Source: Amoebophrya sp. A120 (lineage: Eukaryota > Protista > Dinoflagellata). Taken from it: 64,000 nt of DNA. The stretch is taken from assembly GCA_905178155.1 (NCBI GenBank), contig CAJINV010000012.1, positions 1,114,609-1,178,608 on the forward strand, read 5' to 3'. Below, piece by piece: positions 20,267 through 46,600 of this stretch (positions are counted from its first letter, which is position 1; each line of letters opens with the position of its first letter). Position numbers and translations under genes: made by a program. The notes under the pieces are model-generated. The model was not told the DNA's origin and ran no database searches. It was given only the letters and a program-made list of their open reading frames with translations.

Positions 20267-20797
20267 TTAAACAATAAACCTTGTTCCGAGATGAAGATAC
20301 CGCCGACTCATGCGTGGAGAGAAAAAATGCCGACCCCGGATGTCTGGAATGAGCTTGTTCTCCCAGGTGTCGGCGGGCGCTTCCGCGGCAGGCCGTTGGT
20401 TCAACCGGATGGGAGAAGGAAGTTTTCGTGGTTGCGATATTACGAAAGACGCTTCTACTAGCGGTGGCGACGCAGTCGCAGCATCGAAGACTTCATTATG
20501 TTTTACTACTTGTTTGATGTTCTTGTGTGGGTTTTTTGCAACGCTCTGCTGCATGCTCATCATACTTTTTTCCGTTTTAAGGAGCGTCCCTCGTGCGTCC
20601 CTCAGTTCCGTGAGGATGCGCTCATCCTTTCTTGGCGCCAGGGTCTTTGGAGGCACTGCTCCGGTGAAGAAGGCCTTAGTGCCACTCGCTCCCAGAAGCT
20701 GTGAAACAACTACACGCAGAGTCATTTGCTGATGTTGTTCCATATACACGACACTCCAGGCGGGCATAGCATTAACATCTTCTTCGCTCAACATCAC
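20267..20797 (-). CDS. Hypothetical protein (176 aa)
   Basis: Single ORF with a short coiled-coil-like stretch. No recognised motif. Confidence 0.35.
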   Translation of the reverse strand: MMLSEEDVNAMPAWSVVYMEQHQQMTLRVVVSQLLGASGTKAFFTGAVPPKTLAPRKDERILTELRDARGTLLKTEKSMMSMQQSVAKNPHKNIKQVVKHNEVFDAATASPPLVEASFVISQPRKLPSPIRLNQRPAAEAPADTWENKLIPDIRGRHFFSPRMSRRYLHLGTRFIV

Positions 20798-21208
20798 TCA
20801 AGTTAGTTTTAGACACTTCAAGAAGCCACCTGGTTAGAGGCGACCAAACCACGGGGAAAAAAACTTTCTACGAACGCAACTACACGGATGGACGGACAGC
20901 TAGTACTTCTCGGTACGGCAAGCAAGACGGCTAGCGGCAACCGGAAAAACGGCAAAGTTTGTCGCTCATGAAGCGTATGCCGCTCGATAAAATTTCTTGT
21001 GTACAAAACATTTGCCATGTTGGATGTCATGCAATATTCGATTTTCGAATGGTGTGCTTGTGAGGATCCGCTTGTTCCTGATGTGTTCTCGTCAACATCA
21101 TGAAGTCATGAATTTTCCTTGCAACAATCTACTACAACTGTGACATAATTCTCTGTACAAAAGACTTTTGTTTGTGTTGACCAGATCAACATGAAAACGA
21201 CGACATGC

Positions 21209-22705
21209 TTCTAGTTTCTCTAGTTCTAGCACCACCATTATTATCATGGGGTTACTACGGTCTCTGTATGCTTTCAGGGCCATTAGCAGCCCATTATTAT
21301 CTATGTAGAACTTATGCTTCTTGATTTTTCGGAGGGTGGTAGGATCGATCTTTTTGATCAGCTCGCGAATGTGATGGATAAGACCAAAACACTCGCCATC
21401 AAAAGAATCAGGATCCGCTTCTGGGATCTCTGACACAATGCCACAACAGCTCACCACCAGTGGTGCGGGGGTCTCCTCCTGGAACTTGCATCCCGACCAG
21501 GAGGCACCGCCCCCGCTGCCCGTGTCCCCTTTTGCTCCTCCGTCTGTGCATGAGACCATTATTGTTGGATCTGCGATGGCCCGCTGGATCTCGGCCTCTG
21601 TGATCTGGGAGATCAGCAACCTGCACTTGTCCTTCAGCTTGTGGTCGTCTCCGCATGCTGCTGGGTCCGGGACCCCGAAATCCGCCGCCACCGTGCTCAT
21701 GTCGCGCACACTAATCTTGTCCACGCCTCGCCAATACTTCCTACCGATGCTGAGCGCTACTGCTGCCTCCGCTAGTTCCCTAAAGTCGTCGCTCAGTGCT
21801 ATGCGGTTCATCCTGTCAGACCAGGCCTCTGTGCACGGGGCCCACAACGGGTTGACAAACTGCGCGGCTCCGACTACTTCTCCCGGATCTCCTTGTGCGT
21901 GGATGTTCGCTGACGAGGGAAACTCGTCGGCCTCAACATCTTCATCAACTTCTTCTGCATCCGGGGTGCCGGCGGTGGGTGGAGGAGAGGGAGGACGCGC
22001 GGCACTACTGCTACTGCTACTTTTACTGCCTACTGCTGCTGAGGTTGCTTCTCCCGGGGGCGCCGGAGGATGAGGACGGAGCGCCGACGCCCTGACACTA
22101 TCTGACTCATTACTGCCGGATCTATCTGCAGCTGGCGGTACGGAGAGGTGGTGGGAGCTGCTACTGCTGCTTGACATACCGGCCTGCGGCAGGGAGGACA
22201 GGAGAAGGGAACTACTACTGCTACTGCTGCTTACCTGTGGCGCAGGTGGACGTTTGCTACTGCTACTGCTGCTGGGGGCGCTTTCGCCAACTGCGACATC
22301 ATTCCGCGGCGGGGTGGGGAGGGATACAGCGTTACTACTGTTGCTGCTGCTACTGCTGCACAGCGGCGCCGGCGTGGGAGGAAGAGGGCCGGCGGCTGCA
22401 ACAAGTCCTACGGCCGGCCGGAAGCTCGGGATGTTGTCACTGCTGAGGTGGAGGCTCCATAGCTGCTGCGCCGCGCCCTTGAAGAACACCATCAACGCGT
22501 CCACCAGCATGTAGTCGATGGGAGGGGCGAGGCCGGTAGTGTGGAAGAGGACGGCATTGCTAGTATTCTTCGGGAGGTCGAGGCGTTGTTTGATTTTACT
22601 ACTGAAGGCCGCGCTGATCTCTTTCTTGGCCGCCAGCGTGAAGAAGGGAAAAGTCACCACCGAAATGGAGGTGACTGCAGGATAGGCGAAGGCGTTCATC
22701 AACAT
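21209..22705 (-). pseudogene. Truncated non-LTR retrotransposon pol fragment (RT thumb end plus RNase H)
   Basis: KIKQRLDLPKNTSNAVLFHTTGL resembles a LINE RT C-terminus. SCTDGGAK...SFDGECFGL...FYIDN shows the RNase H D-E-D pattern. Cut at both ends by the array motif. Confidence 0.6.
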
Positions 22706-23651
22706 TATAAGCTGCTTGACTCCCCACCCCGTACAAAAGACTTTTGTTTGTGTTCACCAGGAGCCTTCCTTCGATCAACATGAAAACGACGACATGCGAG
22801 GAAAGGGACAAGGGGAAGGGGCCGCTATGTGGCAGGCCATACAGCTACGTACAGGCGCACCGGCCGGGAAGGCCTCGCGGCCCGCCAGGAAGCCGCCGGT
22901 TTGTCCTCAGACACGGTGGGGCGCTCCATTTTCTCCGGTTGGGGGCCCCTCCCAACCGGAAAAAATCGAGCATCCCACCGTGTCTGAGGACGGGCCGGCG
23001 GCTTCCCGACGGGCCGTCGAGGCCTTCCCGTGGCGCCTGTTGCTGTTCTTTTTTCGCCCTTCCCTTCGCATTTTCTGTGGCCTTCAGGTCGGTTCATTCC
23101 CCCGCCCCTCTTCCGACCTGACTCAACATCTCGCGACCTTGGGGCAGACAAGGGCGGAGGAGTCCTCGTTTGGCCCTCTACTAGCTTTACCCCACACAGA
23201 GGGCCGCAATGCTTGGTCCGACATTCGCACGACTTCCCCTCGGCACCGCTACGGAGCCTGCGCGTCTGTCAAAAAGCGGCGCGTCTGCTTTGAGGGTGCT
23301 TGTCGCAAAATAGTCCTCGCGATAGTCGCTAAGCAGCACGCCGGTGGCCGGACAGCCCAGAAGGCATGCGCGCACAGCCGCGCATAGAAATTCGCGCTGC
23401 TCCCGCTGGTGCCACCGAAGGCCGCCAATTGGCACACGGAACGAGGGCGCGCGCGTCAGGGTAGAAGGGGCACAACCTGAAAAGGCCGGGGCGCTCTTGG
23501 GCCGCCCTTTCGTGCTTTTCTGCCCCGTTAGTTGCCGTTTTGTTTTCATTTGGTCGGCGTTTAGGAGCCTTTTTCTTTGCTAGGCCGATTTGTTCCTAAG
23601 CCTTCCTTCGATCAACATGAAAACGACGACATGCGAGGAAACTGAACCTTC
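21974..23651 (+). repeat. 1.68-kb near-identical direct duplication, copy 1
   Basis: Identical ORF set recurs at offset +3148. Confidence 0.95.
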
Positions 23652-24638
23652 CTCTTCCTCTTCCTCTTCCTCTTCCTCTTCCTCCGACAAATCCGAGCCA
23701 CGCCCGTTGCTGTCACTGTCGTCTTCGTCACCATGCTCATTTTTGAACTCTGCAAGCATATCGAAGAGCGACTTCCCGGTGAGCCAATCGAAAGCGAAAG
23801 TGTTGGTGGAGATGCTAAAATCTAGCGACGCATACCAAACCTCGCCCTCCCCGGCAAAAGCTTCGAAAATTTCGTCGAACGTGTGCCCGGGCGTGCGCGG
23901 GATCGCTGGAAGGGCGGCATGGAACTCGTAGCCGCTGCTGTGTGATGGCCGGTGGTCCAGCTCCTGAAAACTCACCGACCGGCTATGCCCCTCGCAGGGT
24001 GACAACATGTAGATCTTGTCCACCTGCGGTCTGTTGCCCGCCCCGGACCCCGAACTCGACATACCACCAAAAGCTAAACCGCTGTTCCCGGAGGCCGGGT
24101 CCTTACCGAACACAAGCGCACCAACACGGCCGGAATCCCTTGCGTCCTCTGCGTGCAGAATGGTCCGGACAATCTCGCGTGGCTGCATGTCTCGTTCAAA
24201 GTCGTGCTCTTCGTACGCCATCTGCAGCGAAGTTCCCGCCCAGGAGCGCGGCGCCTTGCACGCTCGCGTGCGGGCATTTGAAATCTCCTGCTGACTTTCG
24301 GTCCAGTACTTCTGCAGAACGGCCAGTGGTATTGGCAGCTCCGGTCGGCCCGAAGCCGTTCCTGCGGAGGTAGGCCCCGCCTGCGTAGCCGCCGTTGCCT
24401 CCCGGCTCAGTGTCTGTCCCAAAGCGCTGGCCTGGGCCGGGCGCTGCGCTGCTGCGGTAGTGCTGCTAGAGTTGTTCACCCACTGGACCTGGCCGCCCGC
24501 GTCGATTACTACCTGTCCGCCCCGTGAAGAAGAATTTGCCGTGGCGCCACCGCTTCCGAGAGCCGAAGTGGAGACTGACTGTGGTCCACCGCCCCGTTCC
24601 AAGTCGGCCTTCATCCGCTTCGGATATGGGGTGCGCAA
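23652..24638 (-). pseudogene. Captured coding fragment of unknown origin
   Basis: 352-aa ORF with a globular-looking core and poly-Glu, which runs directly into the array motif. Confidence 0.45.
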
Positions 24639-25121
24639 AATCCATCAAAGTCAGATAGTGTTTACAAAAAAGAGAAATGGTAAAGACAATTACTATCTGA
24701 ATCTACATCGCACTGCAAACTGGGTGACCAGATGAAATTTGCGCACCTCATATCCGGTCGGGCTCGTAAATTGCTTTTTCTTCCTCCGGCATTTCTTTCC
24801 ACCTTTCCGCAGCCTGATGGAAGGTCTCGCGCGCCTGCGCCTGCACGGCGCTGCCGAAGGCTGGGTCAAGGACATCAGGATCGCGAAGGGTAGGGAGGCC
24901 GCGAACATCATTGCGCCCATCGCGTATCCCTTGGCAGCATCCAGCACCGCCGTCGACAACATGAAACCGACCTTCCTTCGATCAACATGAAACCGACGAC
25001 ATGCGAGGAAACCACAACAAGAACGCTATTACGAAAGTATCCGTCAACACAAATTCCCAGTACGACATCAACGGGTCCACATATATTCCCGGTACGACAA
25101 TAACGGTGAGGAGAGGGAGGT

Positions 25122-26799
25122 GGTGGGTGGAGGAGAGGGAGGACGCGCGGCACTACTGCTACTGCTACTTTTACTGCCTACTGCTGCTGAGGTTGCTTCT
25201 CCCGGGGGCGCCGGAGGATGAGGACGGAGCGCCGACGCCCTGACACTATCTGACTCATTACTGCCGGATCTATCTGCAGCTGGCGGTACGGAGAGGTGGT
25301 GGGAGCTGCTACTGCTGCTTGACATACCGGCCTGCGGCAGGGAGGACAGGAGAAGGGAACTACTACTGCTACTGCTGCTTACCTGTGGCGCAGGTGGACG
25401 TTTGCTACTGCTACTGCTGCTGGGGGCGCTTTCGCCAACTGCGACATCATTCCGCGGCGGGGTGGGGAGGGATACAGCGTTACTACTGTTGCTGCTGCTA
25501 CTGCTGCACAGCGGCGCCGGCGTGGGAGGAAGAGGGCCGGCGGCTGCAACAAGTCCTACGGCCGGCCGGAAGCTCGGGATGTTGTCACTGCTGAGGTGGA
25601 GGCTCCATAGCTGCTGCGCCGCGCCCTTGAAGAACACCATCAACGCGTCCACCAGCATGTAGTCGATGGGAGGGGCGAGGCCGGTAGTGTGGAAGAGGAC
25701 GGCATTGCTAGTATTCTTCGGGAGGTCGAGGCGTTGTTTGATTTTACTACTGAAGGCCGCGCTGATCTCTTTCTTGGCCGCCAGCGTGAAGAAGGGAAAA
25801 GTCACCACCGAAATGGAGGTGACTGCAGGATAGGCGAAGGCGTTCATCAACATTATAAGCTGCTTGACTCCCCACCCCGTACAAAAGACTTTTGTTTGTG
25901 TTCACCAGGAGCCTTCCTTCGATCAACATGAAAACGACGACATGCGAGGAAAGGGACAAGGGGAAGGGGCCGCTATGTGGCAGGCCATACAGCTACGTAC
26001 AGGCGCACCGGCCGGGAAGGCCTCGCGGCCCGCCAGGAAGCCGCCGGTTTGTCCTCAGACACGGTGGGGCGCTCCATTTTCTCCGGTTGGGGGCCCCTCC
26101 CAACCGGAAAAAATCGAGCATCCCACCGTGTCTGAGGACGGGCCGGCGGCTTCCCGACGGGCCGTCGAGGCCTTCCCGTGGCGCCTGTTGCTGTTCTTTT
26201 TTCGCCCTTCCCTTCGCATTTTCTGTGGCCTTCAGGTCGGTTCATTCCCCCGCCCCTCTTCCGACCTGACTCAACATCTCGCGACCTTGGGGCAGACAAG
26301 GGCGGAGGAGTCCTCGTTTGGCCCTCTACTAGCTTTACCCCACACAGAGGGCCGCAATGCTTGGTCCGACATTCGCACGACTTCCCCTCGGCACCGCTAC
26401 GGAGCCTGCGCGTCTGTCAAAAAGCGGCGCGTCTGCTTTGAGGGTGCTTGTCGCAAAATAGTCCTCGCGATAGTCGCTAAGCAGCACGCCGGTGGCCGGA
26501 CAGCCCAGAAGGCATGCGCGCACAGCCGCGCATAGAAATTCGCGCTGCTCCCGCTGGTGCCACCGAAGGCCGCCAATTGGCACACGGAACGAGGGCGCGC
26601 GCGTCAGGGTAGAAGGGGCACAACCTGAAAAGGCCGGGGCGCTCTTGGGCCGCCCTTTCGTGCTTTTCTGCCCCGTTAGTTGCCGTTTTGTTTTCATTTG
26701 GTCGGCGTTTAGGAGCCTTTTTCTTTGCTAGGCCGATTTGTTCCTAAGCCTTCCTTCGATCAACATGAAACCGACGACATGCGAGGAAACTGAACCTTC
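25122..26799 (+). repeat. 1.68-kb near-identical direct duplication, copy 2
   Basis: Matches 21974-23651. Confidence 0.95.
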
Positions 26800-27159
26800 G
26801 TGCCGCTCTTGCGGCAGGCAGGGGTCTCGAAAGATAAAATATTAAGTTTTCTCTGTTGATATCAATTGATATCAAATGATATCAAAAGATATCACAGAGA
26901 AAGTTGAAAGCAAAACAGAGAAAAGTGTAAACAAGAAACAGAAACATAAACAGAATGAGAAGAAACAAAAACAAACATAAGCAAAAACATAAAGGATACA
27001 CATATAAAAACAAACAGAAATGGCTGCTTGCGCATCACAAACTGCCACTTCTGCACAGAAATACCTGTCGCGGCCTCTGAGTTTTCTCTGTGGCGAGAGG
27101 AGTTTTCTCTGTGATACAGAGAAAACTTCCCTCCCACAGAGAAAAGTCGACCTTTGCCG

Positions 27160-27650
27160 AGGGCCGGCATTTCTACTGGAAATCAGAGTAGAAACGCCAG
27201 GAGGTCTGGAATTCCTACCGAAAATCCAAGAAGAAGTGCCAGCCTGGCGGAAATCCAGGTAGAAAAAATGCCAGGAGGCCCCCCCCTGGCATTCCTACCG
27301 AAAGTCCAGGTAGGTAGAAACGCCAGGAGGGCTGGCAATTCTACTGGAAATCAAGCTAGAAGCGCAAGCGCCATGGCATTCGTGCCAGAGATCGAAGATC
27401 CCTACAGGAAATTTAAGTAGAAATGCCAGCAGGCCTGGCATTCCTACAGGAAATCGAAGCAGAAATACCAGGAGGTCTGGCATTCCTACAGGGAATCCAG
27501 GCAGAAATACCACCTCAGCCGGCATTTCTACTGGGAATCAAGGCAGAAATGCAAGGCCCAGCATTTCTACTGAGAGAGAATCAAGGTAGGCAGAAAGGCC
27601 CGAGCCGGCATCCTCGCCCGGAATCCAGGTAGAAATGCCTCGGCCGGCAT
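27160..27650. repeat. Degenerate ~30-40-bp minisatellite, followed by a GC hairpin
   Basis: Repeated AGAAATGCCAGGAGGTCTGGCATTCCTACAGGAAATC-like units. Hairpin TCGCGCGCGC-A-GCGCGCGCGA at 27664-27684. Confidence 0.8.
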
Positions 27651-29686
27651 TAGGGTACCCGCATCGCGCGCGCAGCGCGCGCGAAGAATTATTTCGCATG
27701 GCCTTCCTTCGATCAACATGAAAACGACGCTCTTTTCACCGCTTCGATTTTCTTCGGGGACTACGCGGCCGACATGTCCTCAGGGGATGGGCAGTCGATG
27801 ACGCTGTCTTGGCACGAGCTGGACAAGGGGGGCATGCGGGAATTCCTGAATTTTGATTGGGGAAACCAGCCGTGGAGCGATGCCGTCCTTGTATGGAACG
27901 ATGTTCCAAGTGTTTTGGTTTATTGCAATCAGGCACACTAGCCCAGTAGTGCTTGTCGCAATGACGATTTCAATTTTGTAGCAGAAGCCCTGCTATAAGC
28001 AAACGCGGAGAGAGCTGGTACTGGTAATGAGTCTCATCCAAACATGTTTTCATTCACACAAGAACTCGTAATTTTTGTGCCAGCCGTCTGTTGTGCACGC
28101 GACTGTTGATGACGGTCACTGACACTGTTCCCAAATTGAAGGGTAGTTGCCTTGTTTGCCGCATGCGTTTTGCCAAAACTCCCTTTGCCCTGGTTGATAA
28201 AGGGAAAAGGGCTTGATGTCGCCTGGCACGCCCGCCGTCGGACACACGGGTGTCGTCCAACTCCTGAGCAAAATCGGCAGCGGGCGAATCATCTTCTCGC
28301 ATTTCTTTTTTTGTGTCACGTACTTATACTCATGATCCTATTCCTAATCCTTCCTCTCTAATTTCGCTTTTGTTGTACCAGTTCGAATTTTGCACACGCA
28401 CGCGCGGGTCTGCATGCAGTAATTACTTGCTGACCCGACCGCCGAGCAATTTCTATTTCTACAAGTTGCAGACTCGGTCACAGCTTACTTTGTAAACTGA
28501 CACTCACTCACAGTAACCGACGCTATTATATATGGGATCGTTTCAACGCTTAAAATAAAAAAAATTAATTTTTTGCAATTCAAGGGGTTATATAAAATGA
28601 AAATCATCAGAAGGTGATGCGGGAACTGCCGCCGTCGCGGGCCTCCCAGGTGAACATCTCCGGCTTGTGTTTTGTTCATGGTAATGAAATTTCTAGACAC
28701 GTCCCAACTTAAGCTAGTTGAAATGATATGGAAGCTGGAGTCTGTCATCGCGGCAGTAGCAGTTCTAATACCAAGCGCCTTGGTATGGAGAACGTCGCCA
28801 GGGCGATCCGGGCCAGCGGGGAAACTGAACCTTCGTCGTCATGGTGACCTTCGATCAACATGAAAGCGACGACATGCGAGGAAACTGAACCTTCGTGCCG
28901 CTCTTGCGGCGATACATCACCATGACATAAAAAACAACCGTGAAAAATCACGAATCCATTCGAGCAAACAAAAGGAGCCCCTTGCTTTTTCAAGCAAAGG
29001 TGGAACCATGCTGCTACAAGTGCAATAGATTCATGAATTTCTAGATTGAATTATATTGAAACTGAAACCATATTGAAGTAACGAAAAATCATGTTGATGT
29101 AAATGAGCATACTGTGAAGTGAAGCAGCTTGAAACATTCCTCTGTGAATTTTCTGTATCTGTTCGCACAATCAAGCTGCAACATTCTTGAAGCCATCATG
29201 TGCCCAAAAAAAATTGTAAATAGTATATTGACTTGTTTAAGAAACAACTATGCTGGAAATGGACCAGATTTTGATTTTGTGGCTCGTCTGACTGTGCATT
29301 TTTTCTTACCTTGTGCATGTAAAAACTCGGAGGATGGCACATTCCATATCCAATTCGAGTTGAATTGGAGATAATTGAGGTACTCGTTGCCGTACAACTT
29401 TATTTGCCTAGAATTGGACTTTTTTTGCGAGTAAGGAGGTGAGTCAGCATTATTTTCATTTTTCCTTCTGCAAGGTAGTTGACTTTCTTTCTAGCCCGGG
29501 GTCGTCGTGACAGACGTGTTGGAGATTTTTCATAGTTTAGGTTTACATGTGAAGAAGAAGTACTAAACGCGGAAAATTTTTAGATGGAAAGTAGACCTGA
29601 AAATCGTATTCATGGTGTACAACAACTCGTCGTGGTTGTGCTAACGAACAAGCGAGGAAAGAAATCCAGTGTACAATAGCTGTTTT

Positions 29687-32600
29687 TTACGCACTCGACG
29701 CCTGCAGGTACTTGTTCTCCTGTTCGGCAAAAGCTTCGCTGAGCTGCTGACTCCCCCCGAACAACCGCTTGAAGGCTCGGCGATCCAGCATGAGCAGTGT
29801 GGAGTCCTTGACCGCGGTCACCGTTGCAGCCCGCACCTGGTCCTTAAGCAGCGTCAGCTCGCCAAAGAAATCCCCCGCATGGTAGTCCAGCGCTTTGTCT
29901 GATTTTATTTTATATCGGGTGTTCATTTTATTTCTCATGCGAGCGATTCTGCATGAGGAACAACCAACATCCTGATCCTTGTCATGCATATCGCGCAAAT
30001 AATAAAACTTATACCTTCCATCCCCTCCTTCACGGCTTTGCACTGCCCGTCTTCCACGATGTAAAACTTGTCCCCGGTGTCCCCCTCCTGGATGATAACT
30101 TCCCCCTCCTTAAACGCCTCGGCCACCAGACCCTTATGCATTGCAAACATGTCTGAGTCTGGAAACTTGTCATGCTGGGTGGCGTAATATCATGAGGAGA
30201 CCACAAGTGCTGGCTCAACATGCCAAGTTTCTGAGCTGCTAGGTCGCGTTGCCTATTCTGCATGACAAAGACAAACTGCGTTTCTGCATGACAGAAAAGC
30301 GAGGCTCTACTTGGGTAACGTGCACGACAGATTCAAGAGTCATGCCAGACAAGCATGACAAACGTGCATTCTTCCAGAGCCAGACACTTTTGCATTTGAT
30401 AACCCTCGCAGATGTGCGATCGCTCGTAGGAGTCGACGGTCTTCAACAGCGGCACTTTGGCGAGGAACCCCTCGTATATGAATGTGCACCAATCCCCCTC
30501 CCTCTCGTTTGTCATGCAAGATGCCCAAAAATCCAGGCTGTGGTGTGCCTCTTGGCACTGTTTGCATGACAAGTTCTGGCAGCCCAAGTTAATAGCACTG
30601 CAAACCTCCTCTGCAAATCTGTCATGCAAAACCTGCATTCTCGCTGGCGCTTGTATTGCCGTTCATCATGCTACACAAATGAGGAGGAGGGGAAGTTGTG
30701 CACTGTCATATCGTAGCGCTCCCGCTTTTTCTGTGCGGACTCCTTCACGATGGCGTTGAACGATTTTCGGTCCAGCTTCCAGAGCACGCAGTCGGTCTTG
30801 GCGTCCACGTTTGCAGCCCGGACGGTGTTATACAAAACCGCCAACTCACCGAAAACGTCGCCTGAGAGGTGATAGATGAGGAAGCCGCGTTGGACAAAAA
30901 ATTCAAAATCTTAATCTCTATTGCGGTAATTCCATCAGAATTTGTCGTGCAAGAACAGCATGATAGATCTTCTTGATCACATGAAGTTTTGTACCTTCCT
31001 CCACCGTTTTCAGCAAAGTGTCCTTTCCGTTGATTTCCTTTCGGCACTCCAGTGCCCCAGATTCGATCACAAGTATGGATGTGGGAACGGTTCTTGCTGT
31101 GCTTCATGCGATTTTTGCTTTTTCTGCATCACAAACTTTCCTTCGGCGTGACAAATTTTGACTTTTGAAATTTAAATTTCATGTGCTATGCAGAAAATAA
31201 CGCATGAGAAAACCAGCATGTCCCTTGATGTATGGGAGTGTCAGGATCGAAATCGACAAAATCGAAATAATCTGTAATGCATAAAATGCTACGCAGAGAG
31301 CGACTCTATTGCAGAGGATGCAAGGAAGGCGGATTGTAGTCCTGGTAAGGGTTAAGTATTGGGCTGCTGACTAGCATGACAGAAGGCAGCTCTTTTGCCC
31401 TAAACCGCATGACAGATTCGCTTCCAGGACGAGGAGAATTTGTCATGCGCCGACTACAAACTGTGGGTCTAACTGGCATCGATTTTGTGCATCACAAGTT
31501 TTGCGATTTTGACAATTTCGATTCTGACACTTCCATATGATGTGCCGGAAACATAACGAACAGAAACTCGCCGATATCGCCTATGTTGATCATGTATGAA
31601 CTGCAAAAGTATCGTAGTCGTATAAATGCATGACAAATTTCCTAAGCATGAGAAATAGAATTTGTAATGCAGAACTGCCTTAAGGACAAGATTTGTAATG
31701 CATGATTACTTAGTACGATACGATACTTTTGCATTTCATATCATGCGCTCGCCCTCCTTTGCGTGCACCTCCTCCATAGCGCCAATAACCTAATTATAGG
31801 TTTTTACTGTTTTTCGCATGACAAATTTGCTGTGTCATGCCAGAAAGGATGAGGGAAAAACGATTTATATCTATACATCGACTTGTAATGCGGATCATGC
31901 AGCTGAAGTGGGATCTGTATTGCTGCTTTGCATCACAAAAAACGAGTTATAGCAATACCTGCTTCATCTCTTTGGCGTCCAGTGCTCGGAACATAAAGGA
32001 TTTTGACAAGGTCTCCTTTAGTCGGCTCTCCTGGTCCTCCGATTTGGGATAGACTGGTACTTCAAACGCTTCTTTCTTGTTCCACTCACCGTAGGCCTCC
32101 GCCGACACGGAACCACCTGATAGATCAAATTTTTCGAAAGTGTTGTTCTTGCAGTGGTTTGCACATGACAAATTACAGCATTCATGGTGGTTCCTGCATC
32201 ACAACGTCATGTGCTCCTGCGCATATCAATTTGTGATGCAGAAACTAGCTACATCAAAAAGCAAAGCACTTCTATACGCATCTTTGTGCTGGCTTTGTGG
32301 TTGAAGGCGGAATCGGACATGACGTCATCGTCGTTTATCCTGTGTAAAAACGTCCCCAGCCCGGAGTTGTATGTAATGCGAATCTGCATGCTTAAAAGGT
32401 TTCTCATGCTCGCGGAGCCCCACGACGAGAAGCATTTTCTAGCTGTGTTGTGGACTTTGTCATGCTCCGATCAGCATGATATACGAGGTCTGTGATGCTG
32501 CTGAGCTAGCTCAAGCAGCACTACAGTAGGCACGAGTCCAAATTTGTCATGCAAAACAGCCAAAACTTGTGCATTTGTCTAGCAGATTCCCCATTTTGAC

Positions 32601-38033: not shown

Positions 38034-39949
38034 CTACACGATCAGCTGATATGCGGTTTTTTTCTCCGCGAGCTCGTGCAAGGCGCCCGGGCCACCGGTC
38101 AAGCGGTTAAATGCGTCCCGGTTCAACACCAGCAATTTGCAGTCCGTCACCGCTTTGATCGTGCACTGCCGCTTCTGGTCTTCCAGTAAAGCTAATTCTC
38201 CAAAGAAATCACCCGGTTTCGTGTACTCCAACACCTGTTTTTCCTCCCCCTCTTCCCCTTCCTTTTTCAACGCCACGCAACTCCCCTTTTCCAGAATGAA
38301 AAACTCCGAGCCGACCGCGTCTTGTTTGATGATAATTTGTATCAAATGCAAATAGGTCATCTGGGTCTGGAAAGATGCAGGAACTTGTGATGCTACCTTT
38401 GGATTCTACATAAAATCTGTACTGCATGAACAGCAAAAGAGGTGCAATTTGTGCTACGTGGAAGGGCATTTCTCATGCGAAATGAGCATCAGAAAGCCCT
38501 CGCAGAATCTCTGATGCTAGGGCATGCATCACAGACCTCATGGGTGATGCAAAATCTGCATGACAAACTCCTGCATTCTTCCAGACCCAGACATTTTTGC
38601 AGTTGATAATCTGGTTTGCCTTCACCTCCCGTTCCACGATCCCGTCTACGATTTGCGACTTCTTCGTCTGCTCGATCCTCTGGAAGAGTGGGACTTTGTT
38701 CAGAAACTCCAAAATCATGTCGCGTTTGCTTTTATTCGTGGTTTGCAACACGGCGTTGTAATTTTTCCGGGTCAAGTTCCAAATAATCGTCGATTCTTTC
38801 GTGCAAACGACGGTGAAATCCCGGTTTTTCTGGTGCAAGACCGCCATCTCGTCGATGATGTTGTTGTCGTTTTTGTTCAAAGGTTTTGGCGTCACAATTT
38901 TCACCAACTGCTCATTTGGATCCGCGAGATCATCGTCTCGTAAGTGAACTTCGCCGTGATCGAGAATGGAAAGGTAGTCTGCGTTGGCGGACTTTTTGTA
39001 CAAGACATCCCCGGGTTCTAGTGGAACTTCCTCCATCGCGTCGATGAGTTTCTGCAAAGATTCCTCCGAAAGCTTCTCGAACAGGACGGACCTTACCTGA
39101 TAGAACAAGATGAAGATATTTATCCACGACCGGATCCCGAAGATGATCATCACAGGGAAAAAGCAAAAACTTCGATTCCTGTATATTAAGTTATTGCTAA
39201 TCTAGCAGCTGTAAAGCGTGGTCGGATACTAGTACCATGTTGACTACATCAAGCTCAAAAAGAAACCAGAAATCAGCCTACAATCTATCAATTATCCGTA
39301 GTAGTTCTAAGTATATTTGTACCAGCGTATTCCGCAACCTCTTCCTTTGGCTATCGCTTTTCGCGAATACGGGCACAACTTCCTCACCCTCCATGACCGG
39401 CCCGGGCGACAGTCCCCTACTTCTGGGCGACGACGCCACCGCTCGTCGTTTTTCCGCATTTCTATTCGGTGCGACCAAATCCGCGTCGTCTAGAAGCAAC
39501 TCGTCGTCCGTTTCCAGTCCCGTCATCTCGCCAGATTCGGGATTTATCCCATCTTGTCCCGCCGCTTCCCCCTCCCCCTCGACCGGCTTCGCCAACGCCG
39601 CGGCTTCTTCCTGTTCCTGTTTCGCTAACGCTTCCTCCTCCATCTGAATCCTTTTCTCGACCGCGGCCTTTTCCAAAGACCCTAACGCCCGCCCGCATTG
39701 GTTGATCTTCTCGTTTAGCTGCTTGTTTTCATCCAGCAACAAGTCGTACTGTGTGGAGACCGTGTTCTTTCGCAAATTGCACCAGGCCAGGAGGTAATTT
39801 GTCGGATCTTGGTCGAGTTTGGCGCAGAACAAAGCGTCCATCACCATGTCTTCGAGAAGGGGGTTCAGCGTATCGCGGACGTATTTCTTCTTGGCGTCGC
39901 TGATGTTCAGCTTCTCCAAATCGTCGGAATTCACGTTGCCGGGCGGCAT
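38034..39949 (-). CDS. Divergent PKA regulatory-subunit-like protein with two cNMP-binding domains
   Basis: N-terminal dimerisation/docking-like segment (KKYVRDTLNPLLEDMV...DPTNYLLAW), pseudosubstrate-like KRRAV, degenerate domain A (IIDEMAVLHQKNRDFTV), domain B (FFGELALLEDQKRQCTI). GT-AG intron at about 39097-39322 and one introner. Confidence 0.85.
38340..38608. mobile_element. Introner family A
   Basis: TIRs, TSD ATTTG/ATCTG. Confidence 0.9.
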
Positions 39950-40646
39950 GGTCAGACTGTGGATGTGGTGGAGTTTTTTTACGAATCAAAATTATGGGGC
40001 TACTGTACAACTGTGAGAACCAAGTGCTTCTTGGGGAAATAATGTACTGATAGCGCAGAACAATGGGAATGAAACCAAGTTGAGGTCCTGATGTTCAAGG
40101 AAAAGTAGAGAAAGCGACATGTTGCACTACTGTTCGACTGACAGTTTGATGAGGCATAGGCGCCGCGGAAAAAGAATCCGTTTTCGTACGAGGATCCGCA
40201 AATAAATGCTGTACGAGGGACGATGTGGTCTGAACGAGACTTCTTGTCAGAAGGTTTTATTTCAGTCCTTAACACAGGCTTAGTCAAGCAGGAGCTATCG
40301 ATGGACGAAATGAACCGAAATAATGGACGAAATCTTCACACCGATAGTAAAATCCAAATCCTGTCTTCATGCGTTTCCACAAACCGAGAGGATCTGAGGA
40401 GGAGGCACTTACAACTCAAGGACAGACCGATTATTGCTGTGTTGTCTCAAATTCAATTTCATCTTCTAGGGCGGGCTTTTCATCCTGACACTCTACCTTG
40501 CGGATACGGAAACAAGGAGCTTGTTCCGTGCAATTGCAGACAGAAACAAATGAAATCGACTTCGACAGCAGATACTGACTGGTAGTTACAAAAAAGAAAT
40601 TATCAAACTTGTGTCGCAAAAGAAACAAGTAGTTAGAAAACAGAAG

Positions 40647-43600
40647 TCAATACGCATCTCCCCCCGCCGTTTCCGCGTCTGTGATTCCGTTATGCATTGC
40701 AAAAGTATCGTACTAGTAGTATCGTACTAGTAGAAATAGCATTACAGATTTATTCAGAAGGAAAAATGGAATTTGTAATGCTGAATGAGCTAAGGGACCA
40801 GATTTGTCATGCATGACTGCAATTACTACGAGTACGATAAATATCCCCTCGTACAAAGCACCAACGACGCTCATGAGCAAAAGTCTCTAACTGGTACGAA
40901 AGGAGAAATGATGTAGGTAGGTGCGTGGAAACCAACTAAACCGACATCAAATGGGAGACACAGTCTGCACAACCGAGAAACACTTTTTGGAAGTCAACGT
41001 GCGTAGAGCGGGCTCCGAGACGGGGATAACACCGATCGAAGTCCGGGGAAGATCGCAAGGTCTGAGTATAACACGCACGAGGACGGTCTACAACGGCATG
41101 CAGAGCTACTAGGTGTCGTAAATGTCGTAGCGTCAGCAACATGGGTGAGGAGAAGCTACGACACAAGTCGGAGTAGCTTAGCGGTGGGAGTACAAAATAC
41201 AAAGTCACAAGAGTCTAAAGCCGGTGGTAGAAACAAAGAGAACAGGTAGAGACGAAATGAACGACGTTGGAGCAGTTTCCGCATGTGTATATTTATCTTA
41301 GCAAATATCCCCTCGTACAAAGCACCAACGACGCTCATGAGCAAAAATCTCTAACTGGTACGAAAGGAGAAATGATGGAGGTAGGTGCGTGGAAACCAAC
41401 TAAACCGACATCAAATGGGAGACACAGTCTGCACAACCGAGAAACACTTTTTGGAAGTCAACGTGCGTAGAGCGGGCTCCGAGACGGGGATAACACCGAT
41501 CGAAGTCCGGGGAAGATCGCAAGGTCTGAGTATAACACGCACGAGGACGGTCTACAACGGCATGCAGAGCTACTAGGTGTCTCATAGTCGCTGGCTAACG
41601 CAGCACAAATGGTTTGATCACGCCAACTGTGACCGGGATCTACGTTGCATATGTGGAACGGGATCAAGATCAAAGAGGAACGACGGAGGGCAGGCATATT
41701 TCTAGTATCGCCTGCAGTACTCGTGGCCATTTGTGTGACGGTGTTGTGTCATTATGAAAAGTGCAGAAATGTTCACAAAATGATGTACATTCAGCTCGAA
41801 GAGCACAGCACGCTGAAACATGATTTCATTTGTGCAATGCGAGAAGTTTGAAACAAAGCGCGAAACAGGTGAAATGGTGATAGCTCTTTAGTGTGAAACT
41901 TCGCTACCGCTAGCATTGTACAAACTGAAGAAGGACACAACATCCGTGCCGGAAGCAGCATGCGTCTGCGAGACCATGCGGGCTTCCGACTCGTTCTGGA
42001 GGGGACGATGGATCGGCTTGTAGTGTCTCTGGTGGATGTCGTGATCTTCTACTGTAAAATGCGCTTGGGTAGCTGGGTGAAGGTCGAAGCGGTGGCGGAG
42101 ATAGAGCTCCGCGTCCACGGAATAGTCGCGCTCCCACTCGGTGGAGTTGGGCGACCAGAGAAACCAACTATTGACCTTTTCCTTGTATGCTGCGTACTGG
42201 GCGCGCTGCTGGGGTGTGCCGCCCGGTAAATAGCCCAGCATCATGGAGCGCAGGCGTAATGCGATCGCTAGGCCGCGGCGGATTCCATACGGATTGGTTT
42301 TCAGTGTGGCTGCTATGTGCTCCAGGTCACTCCTGGATGCTGGTAGTACGTCGGGAAAGAAGATGCCCGCCGGTAGGTGCACCTGCAGTGTGCATCATGA
42401 TGGTAGTGAAATAAAAGAATGATCTACGTTGCGAATCCGGCCAGAAAGCCAGTTCATCGCTGAGGCTGAATCAAAAAAGGTTGAAGAAGCGTAGGAGTAC
42501 CATATTGAGTTCGCCCGGAGACTCGTCAACTTTAACATCCCGCGCATGCGCCATCACATGGCCTGGGATCTTGCTGCTCGGCAGGGCTTTTTGGCCGGAG
42601 ATGCTCTCGAAGCTGATGGGCCTCAGGCCGCTCGTCCACCACATGACGAAGATCTTCTGGTGTCTCACGGATAGTTTTGCAGTTTCGGGAAAGGAGGGCG
42701 GGCAGGCTCGGGTGCGTGTGTACTGCCGCTGCATCCTCTTAAGCGTTTCGTACGTTTGCGATTGGCACTGCTGCCTCCACGGCTGTATGAAAGGGTGAAA
42801 AACCGGAGGTGAAGGCAAAGGGAGAGGTGACATTGACAACTTTTGCACTACTACACCTGAGCCTGGGCACAGGATGGAAACGAAAGAGGAAATATACAAA
42901 CTCATGCAGGTTCATGCGAAGATGGCTCAGCGGGGGTGGGACATAAAACAGAGGCGCACCACCTGGATGCAAGATGAAGATCGCAGCCTACCTCTCCCTC
43001 TGTATTCATATAGATTTTCACTCTGGATAGGCTGCTTGCGCTCCAAACCGTGCAGGCTGCGGAGCCTCTGGCACACGAGGGAGACGCATGCCTTCACGTC
43101 CTTGTACCCATGCTGGACAAGGTAGTCGGCGAAGTCCAGCACGTCGCTGAACTTGATGTCGGGGTGTGCGTTTTGAATATCCTGCACCTGCTTGGTGGTC
43201 GTCACCGTACGAATGTCAAGGAGCCAATCCTTGTGGTTTTGCGTGAGGCAGTAGTGCGACCAGAGTCGCCAAAAAGCGTTCCGCTGCGCCAAGGTCTTCG
43301 GCGGGTACCACTTCTCTTCTGGCCACACCAGGAAGACAGTGGCGTCGTCTAGTGGGTACTGATCCCGGAAGGACGCCGGCACCAGTGCTGCAGCACGGGT
43401 GTTGTCGCTCTCGCTGGACCACTTTGGGAAATCAACTCGCACTCCATTGTAGAAGTTGCACTGTCTCCCAGCTGCCTCGCCTATAGGATCCTTAGGCAAC
43501 TGCTTTGGCAATTTTGCTGCTGCTCGCTCGTGGTCAAGGAGGGCTAGGCCGTCGGTGAACATTTTTCCTTCAAACAAGCTCTGCCCTGTGCAGAGCTAAG

Positions 43601-46600
43601 ATGGTGCAACGCGTGCGCCGCTCAATCCTATCGCGCGGCCTGCTCAGGTCTGCGTGGATCACTTGATTCTACATAAATTATACAACGCGCAACGTGTCGC
43701 GTTTTTTGGAAAAGTTTGTTACAAAACGCGATGGGAAAACAGGTGTCGTGCCAAGTTTAATTTTTACAAGATAAGAACTACTCCAGAAGTAAGTCGACCA
43801 TGTTCTCCTCCATTTCTTTCGCAAAAGCTCGGATCTCACTCCAAATCTGCTCATCTGAAAACTGAAAATCTACATTGTAAGTCTTTTGTAAAAGCTCGAG
43901 CAGATCAGTGCGGGTCGTGGCGTCCGCAGGGTTGACAGTAGTGTTGATGTAGCAGTAGTGCCACAGAGTTTGCGGGTTCTTGTGGGCCCAGGCACAAAGT
44001 GCACTAATTGCACTAGTGCTAACAGCGTTCTTCAATGACCCCGAGCAGATGCCAGCTACTGCGCCTGCATTATCGCAATGCAGCAGCGAGTTTTTGCCCT
44101 CGAGGTGTGTGGCAAAGAGCCGCTGCGCGATCGCAGCAGCCAGAATCTCGTACGTAAGTATGGACCCTCTGCGGAGGATCGGGGGCAGTTGTGACTGCTT
44201 CGTGTGAAGCGAGAAGCCAACTGTCCGCTGCTTGTGCTGGAAGAGAGTGGCGCCAATGGCCACCTCGTCCCGCTTGAAGCTGGCGTCGCTCATAACATGG
44301 GCACGCTCCCGGATCATTCCCAGCCTGACGATGTCTGTGGTGTCTCGTAGCTGGATGATTTTCTTGACCTTGTTCAGAATGATGCACAAGCTCTGCCGTG
44401 TGGTGGGCTGCGCTACTAGGCGGAAAAAATCTTTCTCCGAGGCGGTAAGCCGGTACAAGTGCTGCAGGATCGGGATGCCACGCCGGAACTTCCGGCTGTG
44501 CATCACATGGATCAAAAGCCCCTGCATGCGCTGGAGGTTTTTGAATGTGCAAAAATTCCGGCACTTGTCGGCGGCGAAGGTGGCCACTAGCTTGTCACAC
44601 TCCTCCGAGATCCGCGCGACCTTCTTTTCCGGGACGTAAAGCGAGATCTTCGCGGCGGTTTTGTGGCAGGCGATGCCCAGCAGCTCGCAGGTCTCACCCG
44701 TGCGGCAAGTTTCGTGCTTTTCCGGTGCTATGGCCACGCCGATGGTGGCGAGGAAGCGCCGGAATGCTGCCTCGTCCACTGGGATCAATTCGTCTGAACC
44801 GACGTACATGATATCATCCACATACACAAAGCAAGGAATCCGCAAAACTTTGTTGACGTAGTGGGACACCAATTCCGACACTGTTCCACAGAATCCGTAG
44901 ATACTGTGAACATTGCCGAAGTTCAGGGCGAAAAGCTTGCCGAAGACCATCTTCTTCTTGAAGGGGTCGAATATCTGAAACTTGTTCAGCTCCGGACGCT
45001 TCACGGCGCATTGGAAATACGCTTGAAACAAGTCGTCTTTTGCAATCGCGGGGAGAAAGCTGTGACCTTTAAAGTCCGGCTTCGGCTTTGGCAACGCCTT
45101 CACATGCTTCCAGGTGTACTTCTCGTTGTACTTCCGCGCGATCTGCCTACCCTTCGCGATGGACTGGCTGACATCGGCGCGGTCCTGCCAGAAGGCGTCG
45201 GAGTACTCGGGGTTGGCGCAGTATGCGACTCCCTCGATAATTTCCGGCAACCCCGGCAAACTCATCTTCTCGCTTTGCGGTGACAGGTGGTCATTGACCG
45301 GGCCGTCGTTGGAGATCGGCCGGACCTTCGCGAACGCTCCGGTCTCGTCGTTGAGACGCTGGCCAAGGCCGAAGATACTGGAAAACCAGTCGCCTCGGCT
45401 CTTGGCTTCCGCCAACTCCTCCGGCGTTAGCTCGACGGCCAGACCGGCGTCAATGAGCTTTGAGTACGCTGTGAAGCTGCGCTGCTGCACATCTTCGGTC
45501 TCGAAGGACCTGGATGTGCAGTGGGCCAATATGACATGTAGTCGCGCTAGAAGAAAACCTCGCAAGAAGGCTAGAAAATGGAACTTGCTCAGGCGTAAAA
45601 CAGAAAAGGAGAAAAGTATAAGAATACCACGGCCCCGACCGTATCTTGGCAAAAGACTGCAGACCTGCATGTCGCTCGGGGTCGTAGAAGTCGAACTGGG
45701 TGAGGGTTTTCATGTACTCAGGCGAGAGGGGCTTGGCGTTTTCCCATGCTTTGAACACAGGGACGCGCCCCCGCGTCAGGAAGCCCGTGTTGATGAAACC
45801 CGAGGCCCCGAAGGCTCGCCTCCTCGACCACTTGTCCCCGAAATTGGCGTCGCGCGCGGCGAGTAGCATCGCCATCGCGTCGCACTCTCGAGTTGGAAAC
45901 AGTGGGTCCTTCCCGATGTACATCGCGTTCACCCTGCGCACGTGGTCGGGCTTTGCCTTCGTGTACAAATCTCGCAGCTCTGTGCTCAGCTGCACCCTGC
46001 GATCGAAATCGGACAGGACGCGATCTAGCCGCGCGGTTTCGTCGCTCACCGCCGTGCTGGCGGGCAAAGCGTCGACGCCCCGGAGGTGGTCGATCGCATC
46101 TTTTTTGAACTGGGGCAATTTTGGCATTTTCGAGGGGGGGGCGAAAGCAAAAAAGGAGAAGGGCTTGCTGCTACACTAACACTACTGTCGCTGCTATGCC
46201 ACGATGGAAATTCTCGAAAATACTAGTTCTTTACTGAGAGCGGAATGTCGAGTACAAAAGTCAAGCCGTGCTAGTTACGAAAACGAAGCGTGCTCCTTAC
46301 GAGTAGAACTTCCCCATGTTCATGCACTGTGACTGCTGTGCGCGACTTAGCCAACCCCCACGACAGGCTACTCTGCTGTGCTCTGACCCGTCTACTGACA
46401 CAGAAAAATCTCCCGTATGTGTAAATAGTAGGACGAGAACTTCGTAGAGCGAGCCCCACCGAGAACGCTTGTAGCGCAGCGAGAGTCGAGAATGCGAGAT
46501 GCTTCAAGGCGTTGCACCGCTATCACAATCAGAGAGGAGACTAGAGCAAGCCCGGGCATTTAGCTCGAGCCTGGGCACCTGAATCGCTTTCAATTCCCTG

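Follow-up and report, generated by a model that had tools for sequence, protein, structure and literature searches.

Most known templated insertions in which host sequence is copied again come from tumours, from mutants or from breaks made by engineering. According to the accessible parts of the reports cited here, distant DNA is brought to one locus with the donor kept, and a host segment is duplicated by backward return, both in templated-insertion cycles of cancer genomes (10.1101/181339) and in templated insertions of yeast (PMC11724301). Target duplications are also known from other settings. Breaks with complementary 3′ overhangs (49-bp), introduced in mouse cells by means of engineered nickases, lead to tandem duplications of similar size without kilobase cargo (PMC8355091). 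In prokaryotes, restriction-modification genes are inserted, usually in single events, at genome-unique targets, with variable duplications of >30 bp and no element ends, and empty sites confirm the insertions (PMC2853133). In double transposon insertions, e.g. R1 tandems with 33-nt duplications, the target is preserved and reusable, with its copies lying between units of the same element (PMC5932611). The lineage of Amoebophrya, already noted for odd intron gain, carries introners with inverted ends of 8–20 nt and direct repeats of 3–5 nt (PMC7789003).

We analysed a stretch of 64 000 nucleotides of Amoebophrya sp. A120 (the window), in which an array at 21155–28910 consists of eight trimmed copies of one ~100-base motif with unrelated pieces of 0.8–1.5 kb between them (Table 1). 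The array most likely represents templated insertion in a new form, with a long duplication of the target. With the cancer and yeast systems it shares distant DNA at one locus, a kept donor (piece E), junctions with 0–6-nt microhomology, short local inverted and other mini-copies, and a return behind the departure point that duplicates host sequence; it is unlike them in that the site is re-copied after each piece, the duplication is only 24–68 bp, one piece is a self-copy of the array and the product occurs in an independent lineage, not a tumour or mutant. Duplication size and the proposed fill-in geometry are as in the nickase experiments. As in the bacterial insertions, duplications are variable and four of five exceed 30 bp, the target was not seen elsewhere and element ends are missing, whereas here the cargo is gene and repeat fragments, there appear to have been about six rounds and no empty site was seen. 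In contrast to the transposon tandems, with their fixed duplication, unrelated internal fragments lie between the copies and duplication lengths differ. An insert inside piece C has the inverted-repeat build of introners; the array cassettes have neither the terminal inverted repeats nor the short direct repeats, their duplications being far longer than 3–5 nt.

Table 1. Features of the array (window coordinates; X1–X6 are sequencing runs; A′ and B′ are the second copies of parts of A and B)
Feature	Position	Strand	Description
c1	21155–21208	+	motif 1–30, 13-nt deletion across ~31–43, then 44–67; continues into single-depth left flank
A	21209–22730	−	internal fragment of APE-RT-RNase H non-LTR retrotransposon ORF
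c2	22731–22804	+	motif 1–74
B	22805–23598		internal piece of GC-rich multi-copy element; donors continue at both ends
c3	23599–23651	+	motif 32–84
C	23652–24956	−	HMG-box gene-like ORF fragment; acidic run at end; introner-type hairpin insert
Mini-duplication	24957–24971	+	motif 46–60, A>C at 56; present in X1, X3, X4, X5, X6
c4	24971–25012	+	motif 34–75; directly preceded by mini-duplication (unit 24957–25012)
x	25013–25121		109-nt filler, imperfect internal repeat; adjoins self-copy on its left
Self-copy	25122–26799		A′ 25122–25878, c5, B′ 25953–26746, start of c6
c5	25879–25952	+	motif 1–74
c6	26747–26815	+	motif 32–100; A>C at 56, as in c4
D	26816–27700		multi-copy element piece (likely one end); hairpins and 42-bp repeats; right side cut internally
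c7	27701–27729	+	motif 33–61
E	27730–28814	+	exact copy of part of low-copy host locus
Junction patch, E to c8	28815–28847		present in X3, X4, X5, X6
c8	28848–28910	+	motif 38–100, A>G at 56; continues into single-depth right flank

The motif is numbered 1–100 on copy 2, with the missing end supplied by copy 8. Its 19-nt core had eight matches in the window with at most three mismatches, all at 21184–28871 (shuffled sequence: mean 0.03, maximum 1), which bears out the eight variably trimmed copies of the original prediction. Motif positions 44–61 are common to all copies, and overlapping motif intervals lie on both sides of every piece. The copies are nearly identical, with three independent substitutions in 458 bases; position 56 was altered twice (P about 0.04). 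Since the same A>C at 56 occurs in c4 and c6 (and in the mini-duplication at 24957–24971), these two likely derive from one ancestral copy; the copied c3 has A56. The target duplications measure 67, 43, 51 and 68 bp, and 24 bp for E. Four of five independent starts of right-hand copies fall inside motif 32–38, a borderline clustering (P about 0.05, uniform-start model) to which piece A, with a start at motif 1, is the exception; the deletion in c1 coincides with the start region of most other copies. The motif matched neither Rfam nor tRNA, and the repeat showed no significant fold (z −1.8 and −0.07). We infer that flanks and motif together represent the original empty site, across which no long frame runs in the model (none exceeds 98 aa, and Met does not occur ahead of the core); neither an empty allele nor an intermediate state was seen in the read contigs examined.

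The seven spacers comprise five distinct pieces (A–E) and one repeat; unrelated pieces had been predicted correctly, but a 1.68-kb self-copy of the array had been missed. Piece A carries the C-terminal part of the RT, a linker and the first part of RNase H, truncated at both ends. It aligns with residues 1016–1399 of a 1654-aa homologue (P0004), stopping ~255 aa short of the homologue's end, i.e. without a LINE 3′ end, and has 96% identity to P0008 over 70 aa. Contigs of its relatives continue beyond 21207, with 2 nt of microhomology at the junction; among the matches listed, the nearest relatives of A′ have 5 differences in 105 nt and 18 in 154 nt. Piece B contains a hairpin with 66-bp arms (22878–23016) and shows microhomology of 6 nt on the left and 1 nt on the right, while the donor of D continues past 27704 with 4 nt of microhomology; contig depths were 347–409 for B and 264 for D versus 43 in the flank.

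The HMG_box match of C (E = 0.0025) is under the curated cut-off. A hairpin at 24625–24752 lies in a likely intron (24621–24753); taking out these 133 nt leaves a single open frame of 389 aa, and likely-RNA contigs end at 24621 and 24753, the predicted intron boundaries, with one further likely-RNA contig (X5, 24703–24910) entering the predicted intron unspliced. No second copy of C was found in the DNA run, where it is represented by one X1 contig at flank depth with no loose ends (85% likeness). Piece E runs from an exon through a probable GT-AG intron (27891–28202) into a second exon, a stop codon, 3′ flank and multi-copy DNA. Splicing of this intron gives 105 open codons, and in the likely-RNA run X3 the joint of 27890 to 28204 had a depth of 62.9 versus 4.5 unspliced. 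The donor of E lies elsewhere, in a 2158-nt contig identical over 594 nt and continuing 1564 nt further; depth was 54.1, with 54.8 expected for a 1x+2x contig. Thus, both gene-like pieces, C and E, probably retain introns, although for C the support is indirect.

With respect to donors, E has an identical one, B and D are multi-copy, A has near relatives only, and none was found for C and x; the donors of A, B, D and E continue past the junctions. We saw no homopolymer or poly(A) tail at the ends of any piece, and none of the 25 longest of the window's 73 inverted pairs lies at the ends of a cassette. Orientation is mixed among A, C and E; no sense can be assigned to B and D. Three pieces have T-rich left ends, with 11 (A), 10 (C) and 9 (E) T among 20 nt. 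In likely-RNA runs there was cover of B, D and some other stretches of the array, at a low level for the array. On balance, the pieces look like genomic DNA rather than retrocopies.

Positions 21971–23651 and 25119–26799 are the same except for 2 differences in 1681 nt, and the self-copy equals 21974–23651 apart from motif 56; the exact A′ interior had a depth of 83, about twice that of the flank. The final ~13 nt of filler x match the beginning of A′. No significant likeness of x to the motif was detected (p 0.15–0.45), and there were no loose ends inside it.

Microhomology summed to 14 nt over the seven junctions with a known donor side, where 4.7–5.4 nt were expected (P 0.002–0.008). Local mini-copies were located at the junctions of C to c4, x to A′ and E to c8. 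Both mini-duplications of the original prediction are present, the second of them (28820–28836) being a direct copy of motif 70–86; it follows a 5-nt filler in the junction patch and precedes inverted copies of motif 56–62 and of the right flank. A short inverted piece had been placed near 28834–28848; it exists, with its best match at 28838–28847, which repeats the right flank at 28917–28926 exactly in reverse orientation (0.5% of control 10-mers have an inverted copy within 150 nt). This inverted 10-nt copy matches the foldback and template-switch products described for yeast in the accessible text of PMC11724301. The intervals are compatible with successive events in 60 of 120 orders; 2700 of 14 400 shuffled arrangements nest too, which makes this a weak test, and the nesting orders give no support for polar growth of the array.

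Reads came from two runs of one sample, perhaps that of the assembly (X1, X2), and from a second study (X3–X6). Five of the 12 distinct junctions (c1–A, A–c2, C–c4, c4–x and E–c8) were fully bridged, with at least 31 letters on each side. Another four were supported with fewer letters on one side, namely 8 nt at c2–B, 24 nt at B–c3 (X1 contig 23557–23622) and 30 nt at x–A′ (X1 contig 24983–25151), with c3–C read from a mixed loose end of two contigs. The remaining three (c6–D, D–c7 and c7–E) were absent from the matches listed. Two X3 contigs agree with the window without differences, one joining left flank, c1 and A (20500–21363), the other covering c8 and the right flank (28501–29500). A third (22257–22776) bridges A and the motif but reads G instead of the window's C at motif 25; as X1 has C and X2 has G there, at least one of c2 and c5 is probably printed incorrectly. 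Each of the 10 loose ends found at the motif continues into sequence that neighbours it in the array, so the motif is not the dispersed element that had been named as a possible refutation. The depths of C, x and exact A′ are consistent with 1, 1 and 2 copies. Misassembly, the other possible refutation, is unlikely locally; no record across the whole array was found, and the full order is not proven.

We lean towards an origin by staggered breaks that recurred and were each filled in and mended with ectopic DNA, the target being regenerated every time; the predicted iterative insertion at one site, and templated break repair as one of the two routes named for it, both fit the data. The two strands would be cut at points 24–68 nt from each other, mostly with the left one at motif 32–38, leaving long complementary 3′ overhangs, or a single break could be extended on the sister chromatid with equal outcome. 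An overhang may then pair by 1–6 nt with ectopic DNA and copy 0.8–1.7 kb, or a free DNA fragment may be joined in. The other end would be joined after brief local template switches, producing the mini-copies, and overhang fill-in would double the site and leave it breakable again. A 65-bp tandem duplication without cargo at 2661–2799 of the window is in line with the fill-in step. In the latest round the array itself was likely the template, with return by homology to a copy carrying C at motif 56, and the 13-nt deletion in c1 could mark a round that ended with no insertion of cargo. The succession of rounds is inferred, as no empty or intermediate allele was seen. Among candidate cutters, the most likely is the endonuclease encoded by the LINE family that is resident here and supplied A, with a transposase or replication nicks as alternatives. 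DNA templates are suggested by the missing 3′ end of A, by its relatives continuing past the junction and by the probable introns of C and E; E appears DNA-derived also because the copy extends beyond the stop codon as far as multi-copy DNA and a donor identical to it exists elsewhere. Against this, T-rich left ends are expected from priming on purine-rich RNA, and unspliced nuclear RNA is a possible template. Copying of C and A from this genome would need donor loss or a foreign source, given the absence of a donor for C (85% likeness) and the divergence of the relatives of A.

It is also conceivable, though rather unlikely, that LINE machinery alone made the array: the ORF2 endonuclease would nick the site, and the RT would start, through microhomology, inside nuclear RNAs (unspliced pre-mRNA, transcripts of elements, array read-through RNA), yielding long variable duplications. 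An APE-RT-RNase H family is present in the lineage, the likely-RNA cover and T-rich left ends fit, and ORF2p is described in the accessible text of PMC11702581 as making staggered nicks with 3′ overhangs, microhomology-primed second strands and templated genomic inserts. Yet the five pieces include no ordinary 3′-anchored LINE copy, none of them has a LINE 3′ end or tail, orientations are mixed, both gene-like pieces have probable introns although E RNA is mostly spliced, and duplications of 24–68 bp compare with 12–18 bp for L1 in the same text. The same missing RNA 3′ ends and tails, introns and orientations set the locus apart from products of target-primed reverse transcription and disfavour the first of the two predicted routes, a site-specific retroelement mobilizing RNAs in trans; five unrelated pieces, variable duplication length and a motif without Rfam or tRNA match distinguish it from an R1-type tandem. 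A single catastrophe, in which a broken fork switched templates many times (microhomology-mediated break-induced replication) and revisited the site after each excursion, is less probable still. It would explain the near-identity of motif copies and of E with its donor, and the two changes at position 56 as coming from a damaged template base; templated-insertion cycles re-replicate a host segment and chain up to 7 templates. But in the accessible part of that report (10.1101/181339) cancer cycles return once, not per template, and direct self-copying of A–c2–B requires a pre-existing array. The shared C56 is more simply explained by descent, and A and C lack identical donors.

Ligation of free DNA fragments into a recurrent hotspot break, with two-chromatid breaks making the duplication, is improbable. 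Fragments released by double cutting at hotspots of meiosis or left over from transposon excision, or DNA that came from a mating partner or from a co-infecting strain, would account for C without a second copy and for A unlike its listed relatives. The lack of a long frame across the modelled empty site also speaks for this, and SPO11 double cuts are reported to give ectopic inserts and hotspot tandem duplications (10.1101/2020.06.23.168138, PMC13532658). However, as far as these texts are accessible, SPO11 inserts are mostly short (medians 67–95 bp, maximum 967), with deletions and 0–2-nt microhomology, against pieces of 0.8–1.5 kb with a duplication every time, and the accessible text of PMC7789003 contains no mention of meiosis or sexual processes. 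We consider it very improbable that an assembly artefact, or a dispersed short element, chained the pieces: the unseen junctions, the lack of a spanning record and the conflict at motif 25 are outweighed by read support for nine of 12 junctions, several in the second study, by the loose ends and depths, and by differently trimmed copies with linked variants, unlike a chaining product. Hardly credible is a dedicated integron- or CRISPR-like system storing foreign DNA. The predicted integron-like archive holds as to its look of repeats and spacers, with low-level likely-RNA cover and three of five pieces being repeats or mobile-element parts, but the copies vary in length (29–74 nt) and ends and have no fold, junctions are error-prone with fillers and a deletion, two of five pieces are gene-like, not mobile-element fragments, and E is a host locus. 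No integrase was found in a Pfam scan of 15 of the 45 window ORFs (whole or part).

About six rounds seem to be recorded at this natural locus, internally marked by the C56 variant, the self-copy and the c1 deletion, and the array is likely a scar of break repair. If the pattern is genome-wide, it would offer a countable natural system for the origin of long staggered breaks and the re-cutting of a site, in which one could ask for the cargo source, DNA versus RNA and self versus non-self. One could speculate, with considerable doubt, that the lineage practises an integrase-free, enzyme-driven, recurrent capture of DNA, with staggered nuclease cuts, kilobase inserts and a target restored twice. 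Single sites would then accumulate gene and transposon fragments as transcribed archives, which could feed new exons or act as transposon traps, and the captured DNA may include DNA lost from the genome (C), perhaps another strain's. A likely DIRS/Ngaro-type element lies 12 kb from the array.

All eight matches to the 19-nt core of the motif found in the 64-kb window fall within 21184-28871, versus 0.03 expected. Motif positions 44-61 are common to all eight trimmed copies (c1 to c8), which follow the order c1-A-c2-B-c3-C-c4-x-A'-c5-B'-c6-D-c7-E-c8; besides them we observed five unrelated pieces (A to E), a 109-nt filler (x) and a copy of the array's own left part (A'-c5-B'). The original prediction was right about the eight copies and the unrelated pieces between them; it had overlooked the self-copy, in which 25119-26799 repeats 21971-23651 with 2 differences.

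A minus-strand cNMP-binding gene ends at an apparent stop (29687), and the array lies ~780 nt beyond it. The modelled empty site (both flanks joined through the motif) is likely non-coding, as the frames across it reach 98 aa at most. It matches nothing else in the window (best E 0.075), which speaks against a target belonging to a window repeat or introner. The motif as a structured RNA or tRNA found no support in family, tRNA or fold tests; the Rfam matches were sub-threshold hairpins.

Features of the array and of the rest of the window (motif positions 1-100 refer to copy 2 as lengthened with copy 8)
Feature	Window position	Strand	Motif positions or description
c1			motif 1-30 + 44-67
c2 and c5			motif 1-74 each
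c3			motif 32-84
c4			motif 34-75
c6			motif 32-100
c7			motif 33-61
c8			motif 38-100
A		minus	internal LINE fragment without 3' end; aligns to residues 1016-1399 of 1654-aa protein P0004
B			internal piece of multi-copy element; donor sequences extend past both ends
C	23652-24956	minus	weak HMG-box match (E 0.0025); 128-nt hairpin insert
D			piece of multi-copy element; right end cut internally
E		plus	identical over 594 nt to a contig extending another 1564 nt
Two cNMP-binding, kinase-regulatory-subunit-like genes	29687-30189, 38473-39985	minus	inverted-repeat inserts interrupt both
RT/RNase H-like ORF of 40839-51797 element	43778-45709	minus	weak RVT_1 match
525-aa ORF of the same element	47574-49151	minus
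Split direct repeats of the same element	40839-41117 = 41303-41581; 41192-41303 = 51686-51797		99% and 100% identity

To assess the printed sequence, contigs of seven runs (11 on record, X1 to X11) were compared with the window; X1 and X2, from one sample, may represent the source of the window assembly. Five of 12 distinct junctions were spanned in these contigs with at least 31 letters on each side, and four more with one shorter side (8, 24 and 30 nt, plus one from a mixed two-contig loose end); for the three around D we saw none among the matches listed. Contigs of the seven runs contained no record spanning the whole array and no empty allele, i.e. no joint skipping the array, although contigs can indicate presence, not absence. 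All ten loose ends at the motif run into the array's own neighbours, so at 85% likeness the motif is no dispersed short element, one of the outcomes that would have undone the original prediction. A metagenome scan with the 19-nt core returned 16 loci, none matching the array beyond 25 nt, and we take these matches as chance.

Contig depth in X1, a rough guide only, was 43 for the flank, 43 for C, 35 for x and 83 for exact A', rising to 90 for E, 264 for D and 347-409 for B. The depth of the junction between B and the motif (170.8) may reflect mixed depth, which would give 174, rather than four junction copies. At motif position 25 (window 22755 and 25903) the window prints C twice; X1 has C, while X2, X3 and X5 have G. 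Given this disagreement between X1 and X2, runs of one sample, c2 and c5 probably differ here and the window sequence may have been smoothed.

Protein P0004 has weak endonuclease and RT matches, and three other homologues of A have weak RNase H matches; among 17 matches nine were examined, eight of them bearing Amoebophrya names. Among the matches listed, relatives of A' show 5 differences in 105 nt and 18 in 154 nt. Excising 133 nt from C (the hairpin with one base before and four after) or 130 nt gives an open frame of 389-390 aa; the frame stays closed when the bare hairpin alone is excised. Likely-RNA contigs stop at the predicted boundaries of this insert, at 24621 (X6) and 24753 (X3), and one (X5) continues into it. 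No second copy of C was seen at 85% likeness in DNA run X1; sequence searches with longer and near lengths gave no protein homologue, nor was there an Atlas match, and a single-sequence structure model (pLDDT 32) was unusable. In E, a probable GT-AG intron at 27891-28202 leaves 105 open codons, and a likely-RNA contig omits 27891-28203 (depth 62.9 vs 4.5), the skipped gap being marked 'not known'. Past its stop codon E continues into multi-copy DNA.

Target duplications, including microhomology, measure 67 (A), 43 (B), 51 (C), 68 (D) and 24 bp (E), with right-hand copies beginning at motif 1, 32, 34, 33 and 38. Four of the five starts lie within 7 nt (P about 0.05 if starts were uniform), and the c1 deletion spans the same spot. 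At the seven of 12 junctions with a known donor side, microhomology is 2, 6, 1, 4, 1, 0 and 0 nt; the total of 14 nt compares with 4.7-5.4 expected (P 0.002-0.008). The C|c4 junction carries a 15-nt direct mini-copy, and E|c8 a direct copy of motif 70-86 together with a 10-mer that repeats part of the right flank exactly, in inverted orientation (0.5% in controls). A build of filler x from pieces of the motif was rejected (p 0.15-0.45).

Motif position 56 (window 23623, 24993, 26771 and 28866), at the end of an A4 run, has changed independently to C (c4, c6 and the mini-copy) and to G (c8), with A elsewhere; each change sits in the right-hand copy at a junction also bearing mini-copies, and two changes at one motif position (P about 0.04) are no more than a hint. 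C56 is common to c4 and c6, whereas c3, which was copied, has A; hence the self-copy likely entered an existing C-marked motif copy and returned by homology.

From the observed anatomy we infer a break geometry, a succession of insertions and a cutter, and give somewhat better than even credence to the following origin. Repeated breaks would leave long complementary overhangs at the site; ectopic DNA would be copied by microhomology priming, or captured; brief local template switches would then leave the mini-copies, and fill-in would duplicate the site, thereby renewing the target. A hybrid, with a LINE endonuclease as the cutter and DNA as the template, is counted within this reading. PMC8355091 shows that filling in complementary 3' overhangs can yield duplications of similar size, PMC11724301 documents distant and foldback templated insertions with comparable microhomologies in yeast, and cycles of templated insertions are defined by return behind the departure point (10.1101/181339). 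Three observations count against the repeated-break origin: no intermediate allele was seen, C has no donor, and no donor identical to A was seen. Priming on nuclear RNA by LINE machinery, as outlined in PMC11702581, is unlikely; no piece carries a homopolymer tail, although the left ends of A, C and E have 9-11 T in 20 nt, and the array did not show the tested features of TPRT products or R1-type tandems.

A single event with multiple switches, rather than many events, we consider more unlikely still. Nested successive insertion fits the five intervals in 60 of 120 orders, and also 2700 of 14400 shuffled arrangements, so nesting neither proves succession nor shows polarity; polar, CRISPR-like growth is unsupported, many insertion orders being compatible. 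That free fragments were ligated into a hotspot (10.1101/2020.06.23.168138 and PMC13532658) appears improbable. An artefact is highly improbable, with a second study supporting junctions c1|A, A|c2, C|c4, c4|x and E|c8. A dedicated capture system is scarcely credible; the tested features of integrons and CRISPR arrays were not seen, and the likeness to an integron in the original prediction is one of appearance only. That a recurring, integrase-free process captures non-self DNA too is doubtful.

The array is real and unusual, and is best placed among repair products of known type. It resembles a templated insertion with long target duplication, the latter occurring also in bacteria (PMC2853133), and is iterated like the double transposon insertions reusing a duplicated target in PMC5932611; the tested features of introners, as sketched in PMC7789003, were not seen. 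In the literature covered, with subscription journals mostly outside it, arrays of this type were not reported for Amoebophrya; the supplements of PMC7789003 may bear on novelty.

For the neighbouring cyclic-nucleotide-binding gene the only homologue found is from Amoebophrya (51% identity); from this and from the names on the homologues of A we take the genome to be probably that of an Amoebophrya. The minus-strand element at 40839-51797 is a likely DIRS/Ngaro-type retrotransposon. In the window, dozens of inverted-repeat elements, 200-320 bp long and related to one another, break up genes, as PMC7789003 describes for introners. At 61582-61658 there is a 77-bp near-perfect palindrome (98.7%), possibly a foldback product. 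A 65-bp tandem duplication at 2661-2799 (1 mismatch in 74 nt), without insert, is in the size class of the array's duplications.
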